32,000 nucleotides of DNA from Candidatus Jordarchaeales archaeon (GTDB taxonomy: Archaea; Asgardarchaeota; Jordiarchaeia; Jordiarchaeales; Freyrarchaeaceae), in contig JAWAHN010000001.1 of assembly GCA_038889235.1 (NCBI GenBank), positions 764,499 to 796,498 of the forward strand, read 5' to 3'. Under the pieces are notes generated by a model, which was not told where the DNA came from, searched no databases, and was given only the letters and a program-made list of their open reading frames with translations. This document shows, piece after piece, positions 6,898-23,481 of the stretch (positions within the stretch are counted from its first letter, which is position 1; every line of letters starts with the position of its first letter). Both the position numbers and the translations under genes were made by a program.

Positions 6898-8196
6898 TTG
6901 GACGTGAAGGCGATGGTTGAGAATGAAGAAGGGTTAATAGAAAACTACAACAGAGTGCTGAGAGACTTATCCCCAAACTTACCTGAAAGAGTGTATATAT
7001 GGGATGAAACTTTAAGGGATGGAGAACAAACGGCAGGTGTTTTCTTAACAATCGACGAAAAAATAGAGATAGCCAAACTTCTAGACGAAGTTGGGGTAAG
7101 TATTATCGTTCCAGGCTACCCCGCAGTCTCAAAAACGGAGAAGGAGGCTGTTAAAAGAATAGCTGGAGAAAACCTGGACAATAGCATAGTAGCAGCCCCA
7201 GCTAGACCTAAAAAGGAAGACATAGATGCATGCTTGGAGTGTGACGTGAAAGAAATACCGATATTTATGCCGACAAGTAGAATACTGTTGAAATACTCGT
7301 TAAACATGCAACTCCAAGAAGCAGTAGAAATGCTCTCAGACGCCATAGCGTATACACTCGACCACGGTGTGAAGGTGGATTTCGTAGCTGAAGACGCAAC
7401 ACGGGCAAAAATGGAAGACCTAATTTACATAACCAAAAGAGCTGTAGAAGAAGGAGCGAGAAAGGTAATAATCGCAGACACCGTTGGTGTAATGCACCCC
7501 CTCTCAATGAAGTATTTAATACGCAACTTGCGTGAAGCACTTAAGGGGGCACAAGTGGGGTTAGCGGTCCACTGCCATAACGACCTCGGACTAGCTACTG
7601 CTAACACGTTAGCAGCTGTTGAAGAAGGAGTAATTTACCCACATACATGTGTAAATGGCTACGGTGAAAGAGCAGGAAACGCCGCTTTTGAAGAAGTAGT
7701 TGTTGCATTAGAAATATTCTATGGAGTGAAAACAGGGATAAAGCTAGACAAGATATATGAAGTCTCACAGTTCGTGGAAAAGTGCTTCGCAATACCCCTA
7801 CCATTCCATAAACCCCTAGTTGGCGAAAACGCATTCACACATGAGAGCGGCATCCATGTTAAAGCACTCTTGCAACACAAACTGACATACCAACCAATAC
7901 CACCAGAAGCTATAGGTAGACAAGCTGAGTACCTACTAGGTAAATTTACGGGCAGCAACATAGTGCACCATATACTAAAAAGCAAGGGAATAGAAGTTGC
8001 AAGAGAACAACTCAGAGAAATAGTCGAAAAAATAAAAGAACTTCAGGAAAACAAAGGCAAAATAGTGGCCAGAGAAGCATATTCAAAGATAAAACAATTG
8101 ATGAAAGAAATTAGAAGAAGTGTGACTGAAAGAGAACTACTAGAAATAACTAACGAATTGCTACAGAAAAGAGGGGTAAGCGAACTAATCAGCTGA
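6898..8196 (+). CDS. LeuA/AksA/CimA-family (DRE-TIM) 2-oxoacid:acetyl-CoA condensing enzyme, lacking the C-terminal allosteric domain
   Basis: Motifs DETLRDGEQ, EDATR, IADTVG, HCHNDLGLATAN, NGYGERAGNA, AFTHESGIH. 432 aa, too short for the LeuA regulatory domain. Substrate cannot be determined from sequence. Confidence 0.85.
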   Translation: MDVKAMVENEEGLIENYNRVLRDLSPNLPERVYIWDETLRDGEQTAGVFLTIDEKIEIAKLLDEVGVSIIVPGYPAVSKTEKEAVKRIAGENLDNSIVAAPARPKKEDIDACLECDVKEIPIFMPTSRILLKYSLNMQLQEAVEMLSDAIAYTLDHGVKVDFVAEDATRAKMEDLIYITKRAVEEGARKVIIADTVGVMHPLSMKYLIRNLREALKGAQVGLAVHCHNDLGLATANTLAAVEEGVIYPHTCVNGYGERAGNAAFEEVVVALEIFYGVKTGIKLDKIYEVSQFVEKCFAIPLPFHKPLVGENAFTHESGIHVKALLQHKLTYQPIPPEAIGRQAEYLLGKFTGSNIVHHILKSKGIEVAREQLREIVEKIKELQENKGKIVAREAYSKIKQLMKEIRRSVTERELLEITNELLQKRGVSELIS

Positions 8197-8317
8197 AACC
8201 TACACCTTCTAAAGGTTAATAACGCTCAATCCTCGCCACAGAATTTCTCCCAAAACTAAAACAGGAAGAAAGAATCCCCTTTAATCTAAAAAATCACAAA
8301 AATGGAAAAAGCGAAAG

Positions 8318-8331
8318 GAAAAAGATAAATA
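8318..8331 (+). promoter_or_regulatory. BRE/TATA promoter of the tRNA gene
   Basis: GAAAAAGATAAATA ends about 33 nt upstream of the tRNA 5' end. Near-identical elements lie at 11001-11014 (+) and 13886-13902 (-). Confidence 0.6.
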
Positions 8332-8364
8332 GCCTCCTTCTCTGAAAGAATTCTTGGAACCCAC

Positions 8365-8534
8365 GGGGGCGTGGTCTAGATATCGGGCAGCTGAAGCCCC
8401 GATAGGGGAGCCTGGTATGAGCCCGATAGGTCCTCCTGTCGGGGTATAATTCCTGCCTGGGGCGCAGAGCGGTGTAGGGTATTCTACACCGTTAACGTAA
8501 GCGGTCCCGAGTTCAAATCTCGGCGCCCCCACCA
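8365..8534 (+). tRNA. tRNA-Pro(GGG) with three non-canonical introns and genome-encoded CCA
   Basis: Exons 8365-8379, 8411-8420, 8450-8467 and 8501-8534 join to GGGGGCGTGGTCTAGCCTGGTATGATTCCTGCCTGGGGCGCAGGCGGTCCCGAGTTCAAATCTCGGCGCCCCCACCA. Acceptor stem GGGGGCG/CGCCCCC, anticodon stem CCTGC/GCAGG, anticodon GGG at 8459-8461, T-arm CCGAG-TTCAAAT-CTCGG. Introns 8380-8410, 8421-8449 and 8468-8500 are all hairpins. Confidence 0.9.
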
Positions 8535-8684
8535 ACAATTTTCTTAATAAAAGTTTATCTTTACATAAGAATTCTGATTATAACAAGTTTTTAAATTGTT
8601 GTTTTCCTTAAGTTGGAGGAAGAAAAACATTAAAGTCTTCTTAGTTCGAGTTATTTTAAAGTAATTTTATATGGTGGGTAGCGC

Positions 8685-11064: not shown

Positions 11065-12480
11065 ATGAATAAGAAAGTTATTTTGCTAGATTCAACGCTA
11101 CGTGAAGGAGAACAGACTCCAGGTGTATCGTTTACTATCGAAGAGAAACTCGAGATTGCAAAAATGCTTGATGAAGTCGGCGTCGGCATGATAGAAGCAG
11201 GATCCCCCATGGTCTCAGAAGGTGTTAAGGAAGCGGTAAGGAGGATAGCAAACGAGTCTCTAAGAGCAGAAGTTATCGCTCACGTCAGAGCTGTTAAAGA
11301 GGACATAGACTTAGCTATCAATTGCGGAGTAGACAGAGTCGCCATATTCATGGGAACATCACCTATACATAGGATAGCAAAATTCAAGATGAGTGAGGAA
11401 GAAATAATCAGAAAAGTCGTTGACGCAATTGAATATGCTAAAGACCACGGGGTTAAAGTGAGATTTACTCCCGAAGATGCTACAAGGACTGAAAGAGAAT
11501 ACTTAGTTAAAATATGTTCGGCGGCCGTAGATGCAGGAGCGGATAGAATAAGCGTGGCGGACACCGTTGGAATAATGACCCCTGAAGGCATGTATGAACT
11601 TGTTTCATTTCTCTCCAGCAAACTAAAAGGCGCAGGCTTAGACGTCCACTGCCATAACGACCTAGGATTAGCAGTCGCTAACTCTCTTGCAGGAGTGAAA
11701 GCTGGAGCCAATGTCGTCCACGTTACAGTAAACGGTCTTGGTGAAAGGGCGGGTATAGCATCCCTCGCAGAGGTTGCCGTTGCCTTAAAAGTATTGATGG
11801 GCATAGATCCCGGAATAAAATATCACTTATTAACTGAACTCTCAAGCATGGTTGAAAGGTACAGTGGAGTATACTTGTCCCCACACACCCCGATAGTTGG
11901 AGTTAATGCCTTTTCTCACAAAGCAGGAGTTCACGTCGCAGCAGTTCTTGCAGACCCAAGAACATACGAAGCCTTTGACCCCTCAATTCTAGGCAGAAGC
12001 AGAAAGATAGTAGTTGACAGGTACGCAGGGAAACATGCCGTCAAAGCAAAACTGGACGAGTTAGGAGTAGAAGTAAATGACGAACAGCTAGAAAAAATAA
12101 CGAAGAAAATAAAAGAGCTTTCCGACAAGAAGAAGCGCATAGAGAATTCCGATATTCTATCCATAGCTGAGGAAGTTCTTGGAAGAAACATTAGCGGCGT
12201 AACACCTGAAGGTGTAATGGGAATCGTTCTAGTAAAAGTTGAGTCACACGTCTATACAACGAACATAATAAGGAAAATTATAAACATTCCAGGAGTAGAG
12301 AATGCTTTCGAAGTAAGCGGAGAGTATGACGTGGTGGTGTACGTTCAAGCGAAAAACATGAACGAACTAAACGAGTGTATAGAAGCTATAAGAAGCGTGA
12401 GAGGAGTCGAAAGAACAACTACTAAGATAGTACTGAAAAAGTTCGACGGACAAACAAAATACAAAAACCGAAGCCGATGA
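11065..12480 (+). CDS. Homocitrate synthase with C-terminal RAM (Lrp/AsnC ligand-binding) domain
   Basis: DSTLREGEQ (the Glu variant typical of homocitrate synthases), HCHNDLGLA, GLGERAG, HKAGVH. C-terminal ~12214-12440 GIVLVKV...IPGVENAFEVSGEYDVVV...IRSVRGVERTTT is a RAM/AsnC fold. A LysW operon in the same window fits this role. Confidence 0.85.
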   Translation: MNKKVILLDSTLREGEQTPGVSFTIEEKLEIAKMLDEVGVGMIEAGSPMVSEGVKEAVRRIANESLRAEVIAHVRAVKEDIDLAINCGVDRVAIFMGTSPIHRIAKFKMSEEEIIRKVVDAIEYAKDHGVKVRFTPEDATRTEREYLVKICSAAVDAGADRISVADTVGIMTPEGMYELVSFLSSKLKGAGLDVHCHNDLGLAVANSLAGVKAGANVVHVTVNGLGERAGIASLAEVAVALKVLMGIDPGIKYHLLTELSSMVERYSGVYLSPHTPIVGVNAFSHKAGVHVAAVLADPRTYEAFDPSILGRSRKIVVDRYAGKHAVKAKLDELGVEVNDEQLEKITKKIKELSDKKKRIENSDILSIAEEVLGRNISGVTPEGVMGIVLVKVESHVYTTNIIRKIINIPGVENAFEVSGEYDVVVYVQAKNMNELNECIEAIRSVRGVERTTTKIVLKKFDGQTKYKNRSR

Positions 12481-18280: not shown

Positions 18281-18359
18281 GGAATCGCTATTTTCACTTG
18301 TCCTTGCAACGTTGGTTCTAAGTGAGCAAAAGATGCCCCCGTTTAGGAGGTGCTAGGTC

Positions 18360-18533
18360 TTGGCAAAAGGCAACTGCCCTGAATGTGATGCAGAAATAGA
18401 AATAGAAGATCCAGTCATAAGAGAAGTTGTAGAATGCCCTGACTGCGGTGCCGAGCTGGAAGTCGTTAAAATAGAAGGAGATAAGATCGAGTTCTCAGTT
18501 GTCGAGATCAAAGGAGAAGACTGGGGAGAGTAA
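18360..18533 (+). CDS. lysW: Amino-group carrier protein LysW (57 aa, absent from the ORF track)
   Basis: Hand translation from TTG 18360 after AGGAGGTG: MAKGNCPECDAEIEIEDPVIREVVECPDCGAELEVVKIEGDKIEFSVVEIKGEDWGE. Two CxxC motifs and the invariant C-terminal EDWGE. Confidence 0.97.
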   Translation: MAKGNCPECDAEIEIEDPVIREVVECPDCGAELEVVKIEGDKIEFSVVEIKGEDWGE

Positions 18534-18535
18534 AT

Positions 18536-19393
18536 TTGGTGATTACCATAGGAATAATATGTGACAGGGTACGCTGGGATGAAAAGGAGTTAATTAAGGC
18601 TGCAAGAAAACGCGGAGCTAAACCTATAGTAATAGATCAGAAAAACATAGTCTTAGACTTAACAGGAAGCGGAGACAACATACCTGAAGCAGACGTCTAC
18701 CTTCAGCGCAGCGTTAGCACGCTTAAAGGATTATATATAACGAAGATTCTCGAAGATAAAGGCTATATGGTAATAAACTCATTTGAGCCGTCCAGAATCT
18801 GTGCAGACAAACTTCTTACAACGCTGGCGCTGGTTAAAGCAGGCGTGCCTACGCCACACACACTAGTAGCATTTGATGTAGAGTCAGGATTAGACGCACT
18901 GGACAAGTTAGGTTACCCCGCGGTCATCAAACCGGTTATAGGGAGCTGGGGGCGGTTTGTAGCATTATTAAAAGACAGGCAGACAGCTAAATCCATAATG
19001 GAAGAAAGAGTGTTCATGGGCGCGCTTTACCAAACGTTCTACCTCCAAGAGTATGTGGAGAAGAATGGGAGAGACATAAGGAGTTTCGTTATAGGGGACC
19101 GCGTTGTAGCAGCGATATACAGAATCGCAGTTGGAGATGAGCTGAGGACGAACACTGCGCTAGGCGGACGAGCTGAGCCTTGTCCGATAACGCCAGACTT
19201 GGAAGAGCTAAGTTTGAAAGCCGCGGAGGCTGTTGGAGGCAACGGAGTATATGGTATAGACATATTCATCGGAGATAAGGGAATGATGGTTAACGAGGTA
19301 AACCATACTGTAGAATTTCACACAACGGTTCCCATTACTGGAATAGATATTCCAGGCTTAATTATAGATTACGTGTTGGAGAGGGTCAAATGA
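18536..19393 (+). CDS. lysX: LysX/ArgX ATP-grasp ligase (LysW-aminoadipate/glutamate ligase)
   Basis: Motifs DRVRWDEK, CADKLLT, KPVIGSWGR, YLQEYV, RDIR, TNTALGG, EVNHTVEF. Directly downstream of lysW. Confidence 0.93.
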   Translation: MVITIGIICDRVRWDEKELIKAARKRGAKPIVIDQKNIVLDLTGSGDNIPEADVYLQRSVSTLKGLYITKILEDKGYMVINSFEPSRICADKLLTTLALVKAGVPTPHTLVAFDVESGLDALDKLGYPAVIKPVIGSWGRFVALLKDRQTAKSIMEERVFMGALYQTFYLQEYVEKNGRDIRSFVIGDRVVAAIYRIAVGDELRTNTALGGRAEPCPITPDLEELSLKAAEAVGGNGVYGIDIFIGDKGMMVNEVNHTVEFHTTVPITGIDIPGLIIDYVLERVK

Positions 19394-20436
19394 GGGTTGG
19401 CGTGATAGGTGCTAGGGGTTATACCGGCGGCGAATTACTCCGGTTGCTTTGTATGCACCCAAAGGTTGAAGTAACCTATGTAACGTCAAGACAGTATGCC
19501 GGGAAACCTGTTGGAAGCGTCCACCCAAATCTAAGAGGACTGCTAGATCTTAAATTCGAAGACCTTAACGTCTCTAAAGCCGCAGAAAAATGTGACTGTG
19601 TCTTTATAGCAGTTCCACACGGAGCGTCCATGGACATTACACCACAATTACTGGAAGTAGGGTTAAAAGTCATAGATCTAAGCGCCGACTTCAGGCTGAA
19701 AAGCGAGGAGGAATTCAAGAAATATTACGGTCCGCACAAGAGACCAGACCTCCTCGGAAAAGCAGTCTACGGATTACCCGAGTTACACAGAAAGGAGCTG
19801 AGAGGGGCACGCTTCGTCGCATGCCCAGGCTGCATGGCTACAAGCGCCATAATAGGAGCTGCACCCGTCATTTCCTCGTTTAAAGTGGACTTAGAAAAAA
19901 TAGTTGTTGACGCTAAGATAGGTTCATCGGCCGCTGGACGCGAAGTGGACGAGTCAACACACCATCCTGAAAGGTCGGGCGTAATAAGGCCGTATAAAGT
20001 TGTTGGACATAGGCACACTGCAGAAATAGAACAAGAGCTCTCTGGTCTTATCGGACGAAAGGTCAAAATCGCTCTTTCAGCTCACGCCGTAGACGTTGTT
20101 AGAGGGATACTTTCCACAATACACTTCTTCCTGGACGAGAACGTTGACGAGAAAGACGTCTGGAAGGCCTTCAGGAACTTCTTCAACGAGTCACCTTTTG
20201 TAAGAATAGTTAAACAGAAGGTTGGCATTTACAAGCTCCCAGACCCTAAAGCGGTGATTGGTTCAAACTTCTGCGATGTGGGTTTTGAAATGGATGAAGA
20301 TAACTCAAGACTTGTTGTCTTGTCGGCAATAGATAACTTAGTTAAGGGAGCATCCGGACAGGCTGTTCAGTGTATGAACATAATGGAAGGCTGGGACGAG
20401 ACTCTTGGATTAAAGTTCCCGGGACTTTTCCCATAA
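19390..20436 (+). CDS. lysY: LysW-aminoadipyl/glutamyl-phosphate reductase (ArgC family)
   Basis: Motifs GARGYTGGEL, VIDLSADFR, AVYGLPE, ACPGCMAT, GHRHTAEIEQEL, DNLVKGASGQAVQCMN. Confidence 0.95.
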   Translation: MRVGVIGARGYTGGELLRLLCMHPKVEVTYVTSRQYAGKPVGSVHPNLRGLLDLKFEDLNVSKAAEKCDCVFIAVPHGASMDITPQLLEVGLKVIDLSADFRLKSEEEFKKYYGPHKRPDLLGKAVYGLPELHRKELRGARFVACPGCMATSAIIGAAPVISSFKVDLEKIVVDAKIGSSAAGREVDESTHHPERSGVIRPYKVVGHRHTAEIEQELSGLIGRKVKIALSAHAVDVVRGILSTIHFFLDENVDEKDVWKAFRNFFNESPFVRIVKQKVGIYKLPDPKAVIGSNFCDVGFEMDEDNSRLVVLSAIDNLVKGASGQAVQCMNIMEGWDETLGLKFPGLFP

Positions 20437-20449
20437 AGAGGGATGAAAT

Positions 20450-21253
20450 TTGATGATAACAGTAAAGTTAGGCGGAAGTATACTAGACCAAGATATAGGA
20501 CACATAGCTCAGGACGTTAAAGATCTAAGGGTAAAGAACGAAAAAGTGGTCATTGTCCATGGTGGTGCGAAAAAGGTTACGGATATTGCGGAAAGAATGG
20601 GAAAGGAGCAGAAGTTCGTGACTTCAGTCAGTGGTTTCAGGAGCAGATATACAGACAAAGAAACAGCTGAAATATACACTATGGTGATAGGGGGGCTTCT
20701 TAACAAGCAAATTGTTGCCTCGTTGATTAGAGAGGGTATTCCAACTGTGGGTTTAACAGGAATAGATGGAGTTATTTTTAAGGCTGAAAGAAAGGAGAAA
20801 ATAAAAATCAAAGAAGGAGGAAAAGTGCTCATAATAGACGGAGACTATACCGGGAAAGTTGTTGAAGTCAACAAAGAACTGGTAAGTAGTTTGATCAACG
20901 CGGGGTATGTACCCGTTATAGGATCTGTTGCGGTAAGCGAGAAAGGAGAGTTCTTAAACATAGATGGAGATAGAGCGGCTGCAAGCCTAGCTGGAGCTAT
21001 AGGATGCGATGTTCTTGTATTTTTAACCGACGTGCCAGGAGTCATAGAGGAAGGAAGCGTACTCGAGAGATTAAGCATGGAAGAGACGGAAAAAGTTATG
21101 GAAAAAATCGAGGGAGGAATGAAGCGAAAGGTCTTTGCAGCATTGGAAGCTATGAAAGCTGGAGTAAGAAAAGTTATAATTGCTTCAGGATTACGTCCTC
21201 AACCGATAACAGAAGCGTTAAAAGGAAAAGGGTGCACGGTGATTGAAAGGTGA
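20450..21253 (+). CDS. lysZ: LysW-aminoadipate/glutamate kinase (ArgB family)
   Basis: Motifs VKLGGS, VHGGA, SRYTD, LTGIDG, YTGKV, NIDGDRAAA, LTDVPGV, GGMKRK. Start TTG 20450 or ATG 20453. Confidence 0.95.
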   Translation: MMITVKLGGSILDQDIGHIAQDVKDLRVKNEKVVIVHGGAKKVTDIAERMGKEQKFVTSVSGFRSRYTDKETAEIYTMVIGGLLNKQIVASLIREGIPTVGLTGIDGVIFKAERKEKIKIKEGGKVLIIDGDYTGKVVEVNKELVSSLINAGYVPVIGSVAVSEKGEFLNIDGDRAAASLAGAIGCDVLVFLTDVPGVIEEGSVLERLSMEETEKVMEKIEGGMKRKVFAALEAMKAGVRKVIIASGLRPQPITEALKGKGCTVIER

Positions 21254-22431
21254 ACTTGAGTAGAGAGAAAATCATAGAAATTGAAGAAAAATACTTTGCA
21301 AAAACATACGCTAAGAGACCATTAGTTATAGTGCGGGGTAGAGGAGCTCTATTGTGGGATCTGAACGGACGCGAATACATAGACTGCGTTGGTGGACATG
21401 GAATATGTGTGGTTGGTCATTGCCATCCGAAGGTAGTTGAAGCAATAAAAATGCAGGCAGAAAAACTCATAACATGCCCCGGAATGTTTTATAACGATGC
21501 AAGGGCCGAGTTACTCGAAAAGTTAGTTAACATAGCTCCAAGAGGACTTAGCAGAGTTTTCTTGTCTAACAGTGGAGCAGAGGCCGTTGAGTGTGCCATT
21601 AAGCTTGCTAGAAAGTATACTGGTAAGAAAGGGATAATTGCCACAGTGCGGGGATTTCACGGAAGAACAATGGGAGCACTTTCGGCTACCTGGGAAGCCA
21701 AGTACAGAAAGCCGTTTGAACCACTTGTCCCAGGCTTTTCGCACGTGACATTCGGCGATGCTGAAGCTGTTAGGAAAGCCATAGATAGTGACACAGCTGC
21801 AGTAATAGTTGAGCCTGTGCAAGGAGAGGGGGGCGTACATGTAGCACCCGAAGGGTACCTCAAAGAGTTGAGAGAGCTGTGCGACGAAAAAGATGTTCTC
21901 TTGATATTCGACGAAGTGCAAACCGGGTTCGGTAGGACTGGCAGAATGTTTGCATGTATGCACTGGAACGTCACACCTGACATAATGGCCGTGGCAAAAG
22001 CGATAGCAGGAGGGATTCCAATGGGGGCTACTTTAGCGAGAGAGGACATCATGTTATCGTTGCAGGAGACAGAACATGGCTCAACTTTCGGGGGGAACCC
22101 TCTCGCATGCGCTGCGGCAAGCGCAACGATAGATGTTATAGTTAATGAGAAACTTCCCGAGAGAGCGGAAAAACTGGGAAGGCTACTTAAGGATAAACTA
22201 GAGGAAATTAAAGAGAGGTCGAAGATAGTTAGGGAGGTTAGAGGGCTAGGTTTAATGGTAGGCGTAGAGTTAAAGTTAAGGTGCAAGGAATATGTTCTAA
22301 AAGCCATGGAGAAGGGAGTCCTCCTCTTGACTTCAGGACTTAATGTAATAAGGTTGCTTCCACCGCTAGTGATAGAAGAAGAGCACATAGAAAAAGTTAC
22401 TCAAGTGCTATCTGAGGTACTGGTGGGATAG
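21250..22431 (+). CDS. lysJ: LysW-semialdehyde aminotransferase (class III PLP, ArgD family)
   Basis: Motifs SNSGAEAVECAIK, FHGRTMGALS, EPVQGEGG, FDEVQTGFGRTG, AKAIAGGIP, HGSTFGGNP. Confidence 0.95.
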   Translation: MNLSREKIIEIEEKYFAKTYAKRPLVIVRGRGALLWDLNGREYIDCVGGHGICVVGHCHPKVVEAIKMQAEKLITCPGMFYNDARAELLEKLVNIAPRGLSRVFLSNSGAEAVECAIKLARKYTGKKGIIATVRGFHGRTMGALSATWEAKYRKPFEPLVPGFSHVTFGDAEAVRKAIDSDTAAVIVEPVQGEGGVHVAPEGYLKELRELCDEKDVLLIFDEVQTGFGRTGRMFACMHWNVTPDIMAVAKAIAGGIPMGATLAREDIMLSLQETEHGSTFGGNPLACAAASATIDVIVNEKLPERAEKLGRLLKDKLEEIKERSKIVREVRGLGLMVGVELKLRCKEYVLKAMEKGVLLLTSGLNVIRLLPPLVIEEEHIEKVTQVLSEVLVG

Positions 22432-23481
22432 TTGGACGCAGTCGAGTTCCTCATAGAGTTTCTTAGGATTTACAGTCCAACGGGAGAAGAAGAAGGGGCG
22501 ACGCAGTTTCTTCTTGAAAGAATGCTGGACTTCGGTTTTAGGACTTACGTTGACAGGGTGGGTAACGTTATTGGTACAATAGGTGAAGGAAAACCTACGC
22601 TTCTTTTATGCGGACATATTGACACGGTTCCCGGCTTCATTCCAGTTAAATTAGTTGGAGATGAGCTTTTCGGACGTGGGGCAGTTGACGCTAAAGGACC
22701 ATTAGCAGCCATGATCATGGCTGCTAAGGATTTTGTGGGAAAAAGGCTTAATGGAACTGTGATAGTCGCAGGCGTCGTGGATGAGGAAGGAGAATCAAGA
22801 GGAATAAAGAACATTATAGTGTCTGGATTGAAGGCGGATTACGCCGTTTTTGGGGAGCCAAGCAATGGGAGGAATATAGTTATAGGTTATAAAGGGAACC
22901 TTCATCTCAAGGTGAAGGTTGAAACGAGGGCGGGGCATCCTGCTAGTCCAGCCACACGGAACGCCTCTGAAGAAATGATAAGCATATGGGAAATAATTAA
23001 AGAGATGCTTGTTGAGCACGAAAAAAAGGGCAAATTGAGAGTGCCATCCTGTTCTATACTATCCATGAAAGGAGACTTGAGTAAGGCGGAAATGGAAATA
23101 TCGATTAGAGTCCCATTTGGCGAAACGTGGTTAAGTTTATTTGAAAGGATAAGGCCGGTTGTCGAAGTAAAGGATGGTTTTAGTGAGCGGCAAGTTGAAA
23201 TAATAGACGCCGTAGACCCGTACGAAGCTGACAAGAAATCGCCACTTGTAGAAGCCTTCAGAAAGTCAATCAAAGAAGTTTATGGAGAAGAAGCAAGATT
23301 GCTGAGGAAAACCGGGACTGGAGATATGAACTACTATGGGAACTGGTTGAAGAGCGGGAACATCATCACCTACGGTCCGGGTGATCCGCAACTTGACCAC
23401 ACGCACGAAGAGAGGATAAATTTGAACGATTATTTAAGGTCAATAGAAGTTCTCAGGGGAGTTATACACGCCATGCTTTAA
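22432..23481 (+). CDS. lysK: LysW-lysine/ornithine hydrolase (M20 peptidase, ArgE family)
   Basis: Motifs SPTGEE, GHIDTVPG, GRGAVDAKG, VDEEGES, GEPS, GHPAS, TGTGDMN, YGPGD..LDHT. Confidence 0.93.
   Translation: MDAVEFLIEFLRIYSPTGEEEGATQFLLERMLDFGFRTYVDRVGNVIGTIGEGKPTLLLCGHIDTVPGFIPVKLVGDELFGRGAVDAKGPLAAMIMAAKDFVGKRLNGTVIVAGVVDEEGESRGIKNIIVSGLKADYAVFGEPSNGRNIVIGYKGNLHLKVKVETRAGHPASPATRNASEEMISIWEIIKEMLVEHEKKGKLRVPSCSILSMKGDLSKAEMEISIRVPFGETWLSLFERIRPVVEVKDGFSERQVEIIDAVDPYEADKKSPLVEAFRKSIKEVYGEEARLLRKTGTGDMNYYGNWLKSGNIITYGPGDPQLDHTHEERINLNDYLRSIEVLRGVIHAML

Follow-up and report, generated by a model that had tools for sequence, protein, structure and literature searches.

Archaeal tRNA genes with three introns have been known from the Thermoproteales since 2007, as described in PMC4090602, and one of them, tRNA-Pro(UGG) of Pyrobaculum islandicum, is interrupted at 25/26, 37/38, and 56/57 (Sugahara 2007, cited in PMC4090602). 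Among Asgard archaea, the complete genomes of Atabeyarchaeia and Freyarchaeia carry introns in 92–95% of their tRNA genes, often several per gene and at non-canonical sites (Valentin-Alvarado et al. 2024, PMC11291895). Supplementary Data 4 of that paper tabulates an orthologous isoacceptor, Freyarchaeia tRNA #21 Pro(GGG) at 1798836–1799053, with three introns. A more recent preprint (bioRxiv 10.64898/2026.10.13.758758) covers the Jordiarchaeia (Jordiarchaeaceae and Freyrarchaeaceae) and the Atabeyarchaeia. It puts the load of Jordiarchaeaceae at ~2.0–2.4 intervening sequences for each tRNA gene, about 2.2 in the present lineage, with as many as five in a single gene and a median insert of 22–23 nt; the inserts lie at non-canonical sites, often in the D-arm, and standard finders overlook them. 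The preprint gives (alpha-beta)2 EndA as the enzymatic background, with paired EndA paralogs in 44 of 60 genomes, and it reports that intron families shared across tRNA types, the mark of transposition in Thermoproteales, hardly occur in these Asgard lineages. Its text does not mention tRNA-Pro.

The gene described here occupies 8365–8534 of a 32,000-nucleotide stretch of DNA, analyzed at its full length and called the window below. We consider it very probable that this is a single-copy, functional tRNA-Pro(GGG) gene of the Jordarchaeaceae (Asgard) with three introns that are predicted to be spliced out enzymatically. The original prediction had named the Thermoproteales as context for such genes, a setting that falls away because the source organism is a hot-spring Asgard archaeon (class Jordarchaeia, Jordarchaeales); a Thermoproteales-type multi-intron tRNA spread by transposition is ruled out on the same ground. 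The gene shares with the Thermoproteales three-intron genes a mixture of bulge-helix-bulge (BHB) and relaxed motifs and an (alpha-beta)2 EndA with a specific loop. Unlike P. islandicum tRNA-Pro(UGG), it belongs to Asgard and not to Thermoproteota, has its introns at 15/16, 24/25, and 42/43, and leaves the canonical 37/38 site empty.

The Freyarchaeia gene is an ortholog from a sister family of the same class and shares sites 15/16 and 24/25. Its tabulated coordinates correspond to locus L013:1389–1606 of genome G006, where we read five intervening sequences, at 15/16, 24/25, 25/26, ~39/40, and ~58/59. Removing all five leaves a 77-nt tRNA-Pro(GGG) that ARAGORN calls and that is identical to the product described here at 70 of 77 positions. 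The published table therefore appears to omit two D-arm inserts, 24/25 and 25/26 (PMC11291895), which matches the claim in bioRxiv 10.64898/2026.10.13.758758 that D-arm inserts are systematically missed. The Freyarchaeia anticodon-stem intron lies at ~39/40 instead of 42/43, and the gene in the window lacks both the T-loop intron and the 25/26 intron of its Freyarchaeia ortholog.

The original prediction had left room for novelty in the set of intron positions. That suggestion did not survive comparison, as the same three positions occur in every family relative examined and the interruption of tRNA genes in this lineage is already published (PMC11291895; bioRxiv 10.64898/2026.10.13.758758). 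A three-intron tRNA gene in this lineage exemplifies a kind already known: the practice of interrupting tRNAs and the orthologous gene are both in print, which leaves little novelty. Among the heavily interrupted tRNAs of the class Jordarchaeia the gene is ordinary, and set against those that the preprint describes for Jordiarchaeia and Atabeyarchaeia, it differs in nothing of kind. The one contrast is that the preprint analyzes intron gains, whereas this locus shows a clear loss.

Architecture, splice motifs, and splicing enzymes

Joining 8365–8379, 8411–8420, 8450–8467, and 8501–8534 takes out inserts at 8380–8410, 8421–8449, and 8468–8500 and yields a 77-nt RNA that ARAGORN calls as tRNA-Pro(GGG). 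Its acceptor stem measures 7 bp and its anticodon and T stems 5 bp each, with D-loop AGCCUGGUA, anticodon loop CUGGGGC, a 5-nt variable loop, T arm CCGAG-UUCAAAU-CUCGG, and a 3' end of A73 followed by an encoded CCA; its D-stem contains a U13-U22 mismatch. All parts lie on the plus strand. Exon 1 (8365–8379, positions 1–15) supplies the acceptor 5' strand, U8, G9, the D-stem 5' strand GUCU, A14, and G15. Exon 2 (8411–8420, positions 16–24 with 17a) comprises the D-loop CCUGGUA and U22, G23, and A24. Exon 3 (8450–8467, positions 25–42) runs from U25 and U26 through the anticodon-stem 5' strand and the loop CUGGGGC, which holds the anticodon GGG and G37, to G39-G42; exon 4 (8501–8534, positions 43–73 plus the encoded CCA) contributes G43, the variable loop CGGUC, the T arm, the acceptor 3' strand, and A73. 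A split or permuted tRNA gene is ruled out, since the four exons are colinear within 170 nt of one strand.

Signals on either side of the gene are consistent with independent transcription of an archaeal tRNA gene. A TATA-like box, ATAAATA (8325–8331, plus strand), follows a purine-rich, BRE-like run ~34–40 nt upstream of the mature 5' end and is a candidate promoter element. Archaeal terminators are commonly oligo-T tracts, and the T-rich run TTTTCTT at 8539–8545 (plus strand) is accordingly read as a likely transcription stop. A scan for sigma-70 promoters and intrinsic terminators, models that are not relevant to an archaeon, returned nothing at the gene.

In the BHB geometry, exon bases that precede a 2-base overhang pair with bases of the intron 3' end in a 4-bp helix, and the 3-nt bulge on either side of this helix is cut after its second base (PMC4090602). 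At all three inserts, the junction pairs conform to the BHB or to the relaxed hBH/HBh' form, and the motif of intron 3 is weak when taken alone. Intron 2 (8421–8449, plus strand, 29 nt, site 24/25) scores as a full BHB core, in which GUAU at 8415–8418 pairs with GUAU at 8444–8447 in 4 of 4 pairs (two of them G-U), with bulges GAG and AAU and a 9-bp helix. In relatives, the 3' strand reads GUGC or GUAC and pairing still reaches 4 of 4. Intron 1 (8380–8410, plus strand, 31 nt, site 15/16) has a relaxed HBh'-type motif, with a central helix GUCU/GGGG of 3 of 4 pairs, bulges AGA and AGC, and a 7-bp helix UAUCGGG/CCCGAUA. Intron 3 (8468–8500, plus strand, 33 nt, site 42/43) is likewise relaxed, its central helix GCGC/ACGU having 3 of 4 pairs and bulges AGA and AAG; its strong 9-bp hairpin is offset by two unpaired bases. 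Two relatives have GCGC/GCGU at this place and thereby 4 of 4 pairs, through an A-to-G change.

The diagnostic value of these motifs differs. Motifs like those of introns 1 and 2 arise in 0.05% of random 20–40-nt placements in the window, whereas "3 of 4 pairs" alone arises in 15%, so that the intron 3 motif is no evidence by itself. The preprint bioRxiv 10.64898/2026.10.13.758758 gives the same caution about the relaxed motif class. On the points of structure, the original prediction was accurate: the identity as tRNA-Pro(GGG) is borne out by the ARAGORN call on the 77-nt product and by its colinearity with a compact tRNA-Pro; the three intron positions and their coordinates are exact and agree with the conservation of exons against introns; and motif scoring reproduced the full BHB core of intron 2 (GTAT 8415–8418 with GTAT 8444–8447, bulges GAG and AAT) as well as the relaxed motifs of introns 1 and 3 with 3 of 4 central pairs.

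Such a gene had also been said to need an endonuclease of broad specificity, and the genome encodes two EndA paralogs, both with PF01974/PF02778, whose typing fits that expectation. The alpha subunit (L001:1192–1779, plus strand; 196 aa) aligns with the catalytic EndA of Aeropyrum pernix (E = 4e-47), has preserved His in GPGIDHAP and Lys in SVRKK, and is gapless across the A. pernix specific loop, with K51 aligned to the conserved K44. The beta subunit (L002:1477–2061, minus strand, contig G000:C3; 195 aa) has Val at the position of the Methanocaldococcus catalytic His. The loop and its lysine are the basis of broad specificity, and an (alpha-beta)2 EndA with this loop has been reported across Asgard archaea (PMC5829648). 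The genome is thus predicted to supply an (alpha-beta)2 endonuclease, with the specific loop and lysine, capable of cutting at non-canonical sites. An RtcB gene lies at G000:C1:704115–705422 (PF01139 match, 600 bits). By sequence, the beta subunit stands nearer to the enzymes of Methanocaldococcus and Methanopyrus than to beta subunits from crenarchaea.

Conservation among orthologs and the 25/26 site

Orthologous genes were recovered from four relatives of the same family, hot-spring MAGs labeled Candidatus Jordarchaeum sp., Jordarchaeales, or Jordarchaeia archaeon, three of which bear the label of the same genus. They have the same neighbors, with an HMGL-like synthase gene upstream and a histone-deacetylase-family gene downstream; in the relative from another genus (G004), the synthase gene was not recovered beside the tRNA gene. 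An A/T box stands at the same upstream distance in all four and in the Freyarchaeia gene. A metagenome scan for further orthologs added no new distinct sequences.

The neighbors of the tRNA gene in the window are ordinary housekeeping genes. Homocitrate-synthase-like genes occupy 6898–8196 and 11065–12480, and a small zinc-ribbon LysW-like gene at 18349–18535 is followed by a run of same-strand ORFs (18536–23481); together, the LysW-like and homocitrate-synthase-like genes may represent a cluster for aminoadipate-type lysine or arginine biosynthesis.

Of the 77 exon columns, 75 are invariant across the five species of the family, compared with 42 of 93 intron columns (Fisher p = 4e-15), and the introns also vary in length. 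Exons 1 and 3 do not vary at all; the sole variable base of exon 2 is position 17 and that of exon 4 is position 59, so these two positions account for all exon variation. Positions 17 and 59 vary in tRNAs generally. Sites 15/16, 24/25, and 42/43 are all present in 4 of 4 family relatives. Within the introns, RNAalifold identifies compensatory changes at 7 pairs: five belong to the hairpin of intron 3, and the hairpins of introns 1 and 2 have one apiece, that of the intron 1 helix being a change from G-C to A-U.

An external reference is the tRNA-Pro(UGG) at L011, which belongs to another Asgard family and has no introns; it aligns with the spliced product without gaps over 77 nt in each. The U13-U22 mismatch might cast doubt on the junctions; the compact tRNA-Pro(UGG) has the same mismatch, and the two share the D-arm GUCU...GGUAUGAU with D-stem GUCU/UGAU. 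Viewed together, the comparisons, and not the motifs, constitute the strong evidence for the predicted exon/intron split.

The orthologs differ from the gene in the window in one respect. In 4 of 4 family orthologs (L004:1502–1695, L005:1501–1695, L006:1501–1695, and, on the minus strand, L007:1504–1689), a fourth insert of 20–25 nt lies exactly between U25 and U26, making U25 a one-base exon. The range becomes 20–29 nt when the Freyarchaeia gene is counted in, and the 25/26 inserts of two Jordarchaeaceae genera are clearly homologous in sequence. The insert is absent from the window, where the junction 8450/8451 reads ...GGGGUAUAAU/UCCUGCC..., precisely the joint predicted for splicing. Given the kinship labels of the relatives, this pattern is most simply explained by a precise loss of the 25/26 intron in the line of this species. 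Because the sequence at 8450/8451 is evidently functional in its joined state, the loss serves as a natural control for the splice prediction.

Proposed maturation of the precursor and competing readings

We propose that transcription from the gene's own TATA-box promoter would produce a precursor of ~180 nt in which local hairpins, forming as the RNA is synthesized, would present BHB or HBh'-like motifs at 15/16, 24/25, and 42/43. The (alpha-beta)2 EndA would then cut both ends of each intron, six bonds in total, and RtcB would join the four exons, after which RNase P and 3' processing would release the 77-nt tRNA with its encoded CCA. The cutting, the joining, and their order we infer from the conserved exon/intron partition, the motifs, and the presence of the enzymes.

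Run X4, a metatranscriptome library from sediment, contains a contig of 207 nt that spans 8278–8482, covering the upstream region and the gene through intron 2 in unspliced form, with a few differences from the window sequence. It may be a precursor transcript, a read-through product, or DNA carry-over, the last being suggested by its start, which lies upstream of the expected transcription start. A second RNA-library contig (X9) was rejected as a transcript of this gene, as it matches only 8499–8534 and derives from a different tRNA of another organism. Spliced joints were not seen in the RNA-library contigs matching the locus (X4 and X9), a 3% sample of the source study's raw metatranscriptome reads contained 0 reads on it, and the literature searched held no experimental proof of splicing in this lineage.

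Predicted folding complicates the proposed course. The minimum-energy fold is ~14–16 kcal/mol more stable than the fold presenting all three motifs, an advantage that it owes to possible pairing between introns 1 and 2 through their 3' halves (8396–8408 with 8435–8445; the 3' half of intron 1 is GCCCCGAUAGGGG). Of the intron structures, only the hairpin of intron 3 is kept in this fold, and similar pairing between introns 1 and 2 occurs in the predicted folds of some relatives. Thermodynamic folding was therefore rejected as support for the motifs, as the minimum-energy fold lacks those of introns 1 and 2. The competing fold may reflect a limit of prediction or may point to a role for folding in the course of transcription. 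Separately, introns 1 and 2 have the 9-nt word CCCGATAGG in common (p ~0.02). The idea that intron 2 arose by duplication of exon 2 together with the preceding 3' half of intron 1 was tried and rejected, as local alignment against shuffles gave p of ~0.015–0.025 in two species and no significance in three others.

A more elaborate evolutionary account would have one of four ancestral introns (25/26) precisely deleted and the two D-arm introns kept, with 3' halves that pair with each other and hide the motifs; taken as a whole, we regard it as unlikely. Were the competing fold real, maturation would need a fixed order of co-transcriptional splicing or tuning by temperature.

It is quite improbable that the gene is real with one or more junctions 1–2 bases away from those proposed, or with processing through other folds, such as ordered or co-transcriptional splicing imposed by the pairing of introns 1 and 2. 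The competing helix in the minimum-energy folds is one reason to entertain this. Others are that in the RNAalifold structure G9-U13 are paired with the intron 1 3' end plus C16-C17 instead of a clean bulge being formed, that the intron 3 hairpin is offset from the central helix, and that in this genome the intron 1 cut could fall one base earlier (8378/8379 with 8409/8410) without altering the product, since G8379 equals G8410. The relatives speak against such a shift, for their intron 1 ends in A, and only the 15/16 junction keeps G15, matching C48. Shifted junctions of introns 2 or 3 would alter the product and break stem pairs, and the product as proposed is already colinear with a compact tRNA-Pro.

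Far less credible is a precursor that retains its inserts, as an enlarged D-arm and anticodon stem, or a decaying tRNA pseudogene. Spliced RNA has not been observed, and bioRxiv 10.64898/2026.10.13.758758 speaks of "intervening sequences" and reports no RNA data. Against this, the exons are near-invariant as the inserts diverge in sequence and length, compensatory changes preserve the hairpins, the gene is single copy with a conserved promoter box, and the genome encodes a broad-specificity EndA and RtcB. Inserts of 31 nt in the D-loop and 33 nt in the anticodon stem are moreover incompatible with the tRNA L-shape. That the inserts are assembly or chimera artifacts of the metagenome bin has next to no probability: the assembly is a draft (8 contigs, estimated contamination 3.3%), but several DNA runs have contigs in which the stretch is unbroken, in one case at depth 86, and interrupted orthologs occur in the assemblies of four other species, in metagenome contigs from JGI, and in the closed genome from Freyarchaeia.

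Hidden tRNA genes and the value of the ortholog series

With enzymatic splicing of three introns as the preferred reading, the gene illustrates how archaeal tRNA genes escape standard finders. The original prediction had warned that such programs may miss it, and this is what happened: ARAGORN made no call on the unspliced locus (8365–8534) with or without its intron option, and none of the Rfam models matched it at gathering score. A Pro(GGG) decoder would thus score as missing from the genome unless the introns at 15/16, 24/25, and 42/43 were removed. A second copy of this tRNA-Pro(GGG) was not found in the assembly, which comprises 2.14 Mb in 8 contigs and is 95% complete with an estimated contamination of 3.3%.

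The rest of the genome conveys the same picture. About 46 tRNA genes are expected in an archaeon. Genome-wide, 13 were found by ARAGORN with one intron allowed and 12 scored above the cut-off of the Rfam tRNA model; at 95% completeness, most tRNA genes must be hidden likewise. A scan for T-arms with acceptor stems, using strict filters, gave 26 raw candidates, of which 9 remained plausible after a D-arm filter, figures that provide no tRNA census because T-arms are often interrupted. Within the window, other tRNA genes with an intact T arm were not found, and its large intergenic gaps hold the small LysW-like gene or nothing tRNA-like. The assembly's only intron-free, top-scoring tRNA is an Arg(CCG) at G000:C6:391–468; its contig measures 5.7 kb with a G+C content of 41.6%, compared with 47–51%, and may derive from a mobile element or a different organism.

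As a phenomenon, the three-intron gene adds nothing beyond the 2024 Freyarchaeia/Atabeyarchaeia paper and the 2026 Jordiarchaeaceae preprint, and its small added value is comparative. The six orthologs, with three, four, or five intervening sequences each, form a series for studying intron gain and loss, in which sites 15/16 and 24/25 are shared, 42/43 as against ~39/40 and 58/59 are lineage-specific, and 25/26 has been lost. On the more elaborate account judged unlikely above, the 25/26 loss would suggest that introns of Asgard archaea can turn over when a gene recombines with a reverse-transcribed copy of its partly spliced precursor. The same series also bears on the substrate range of Asgard EndA.
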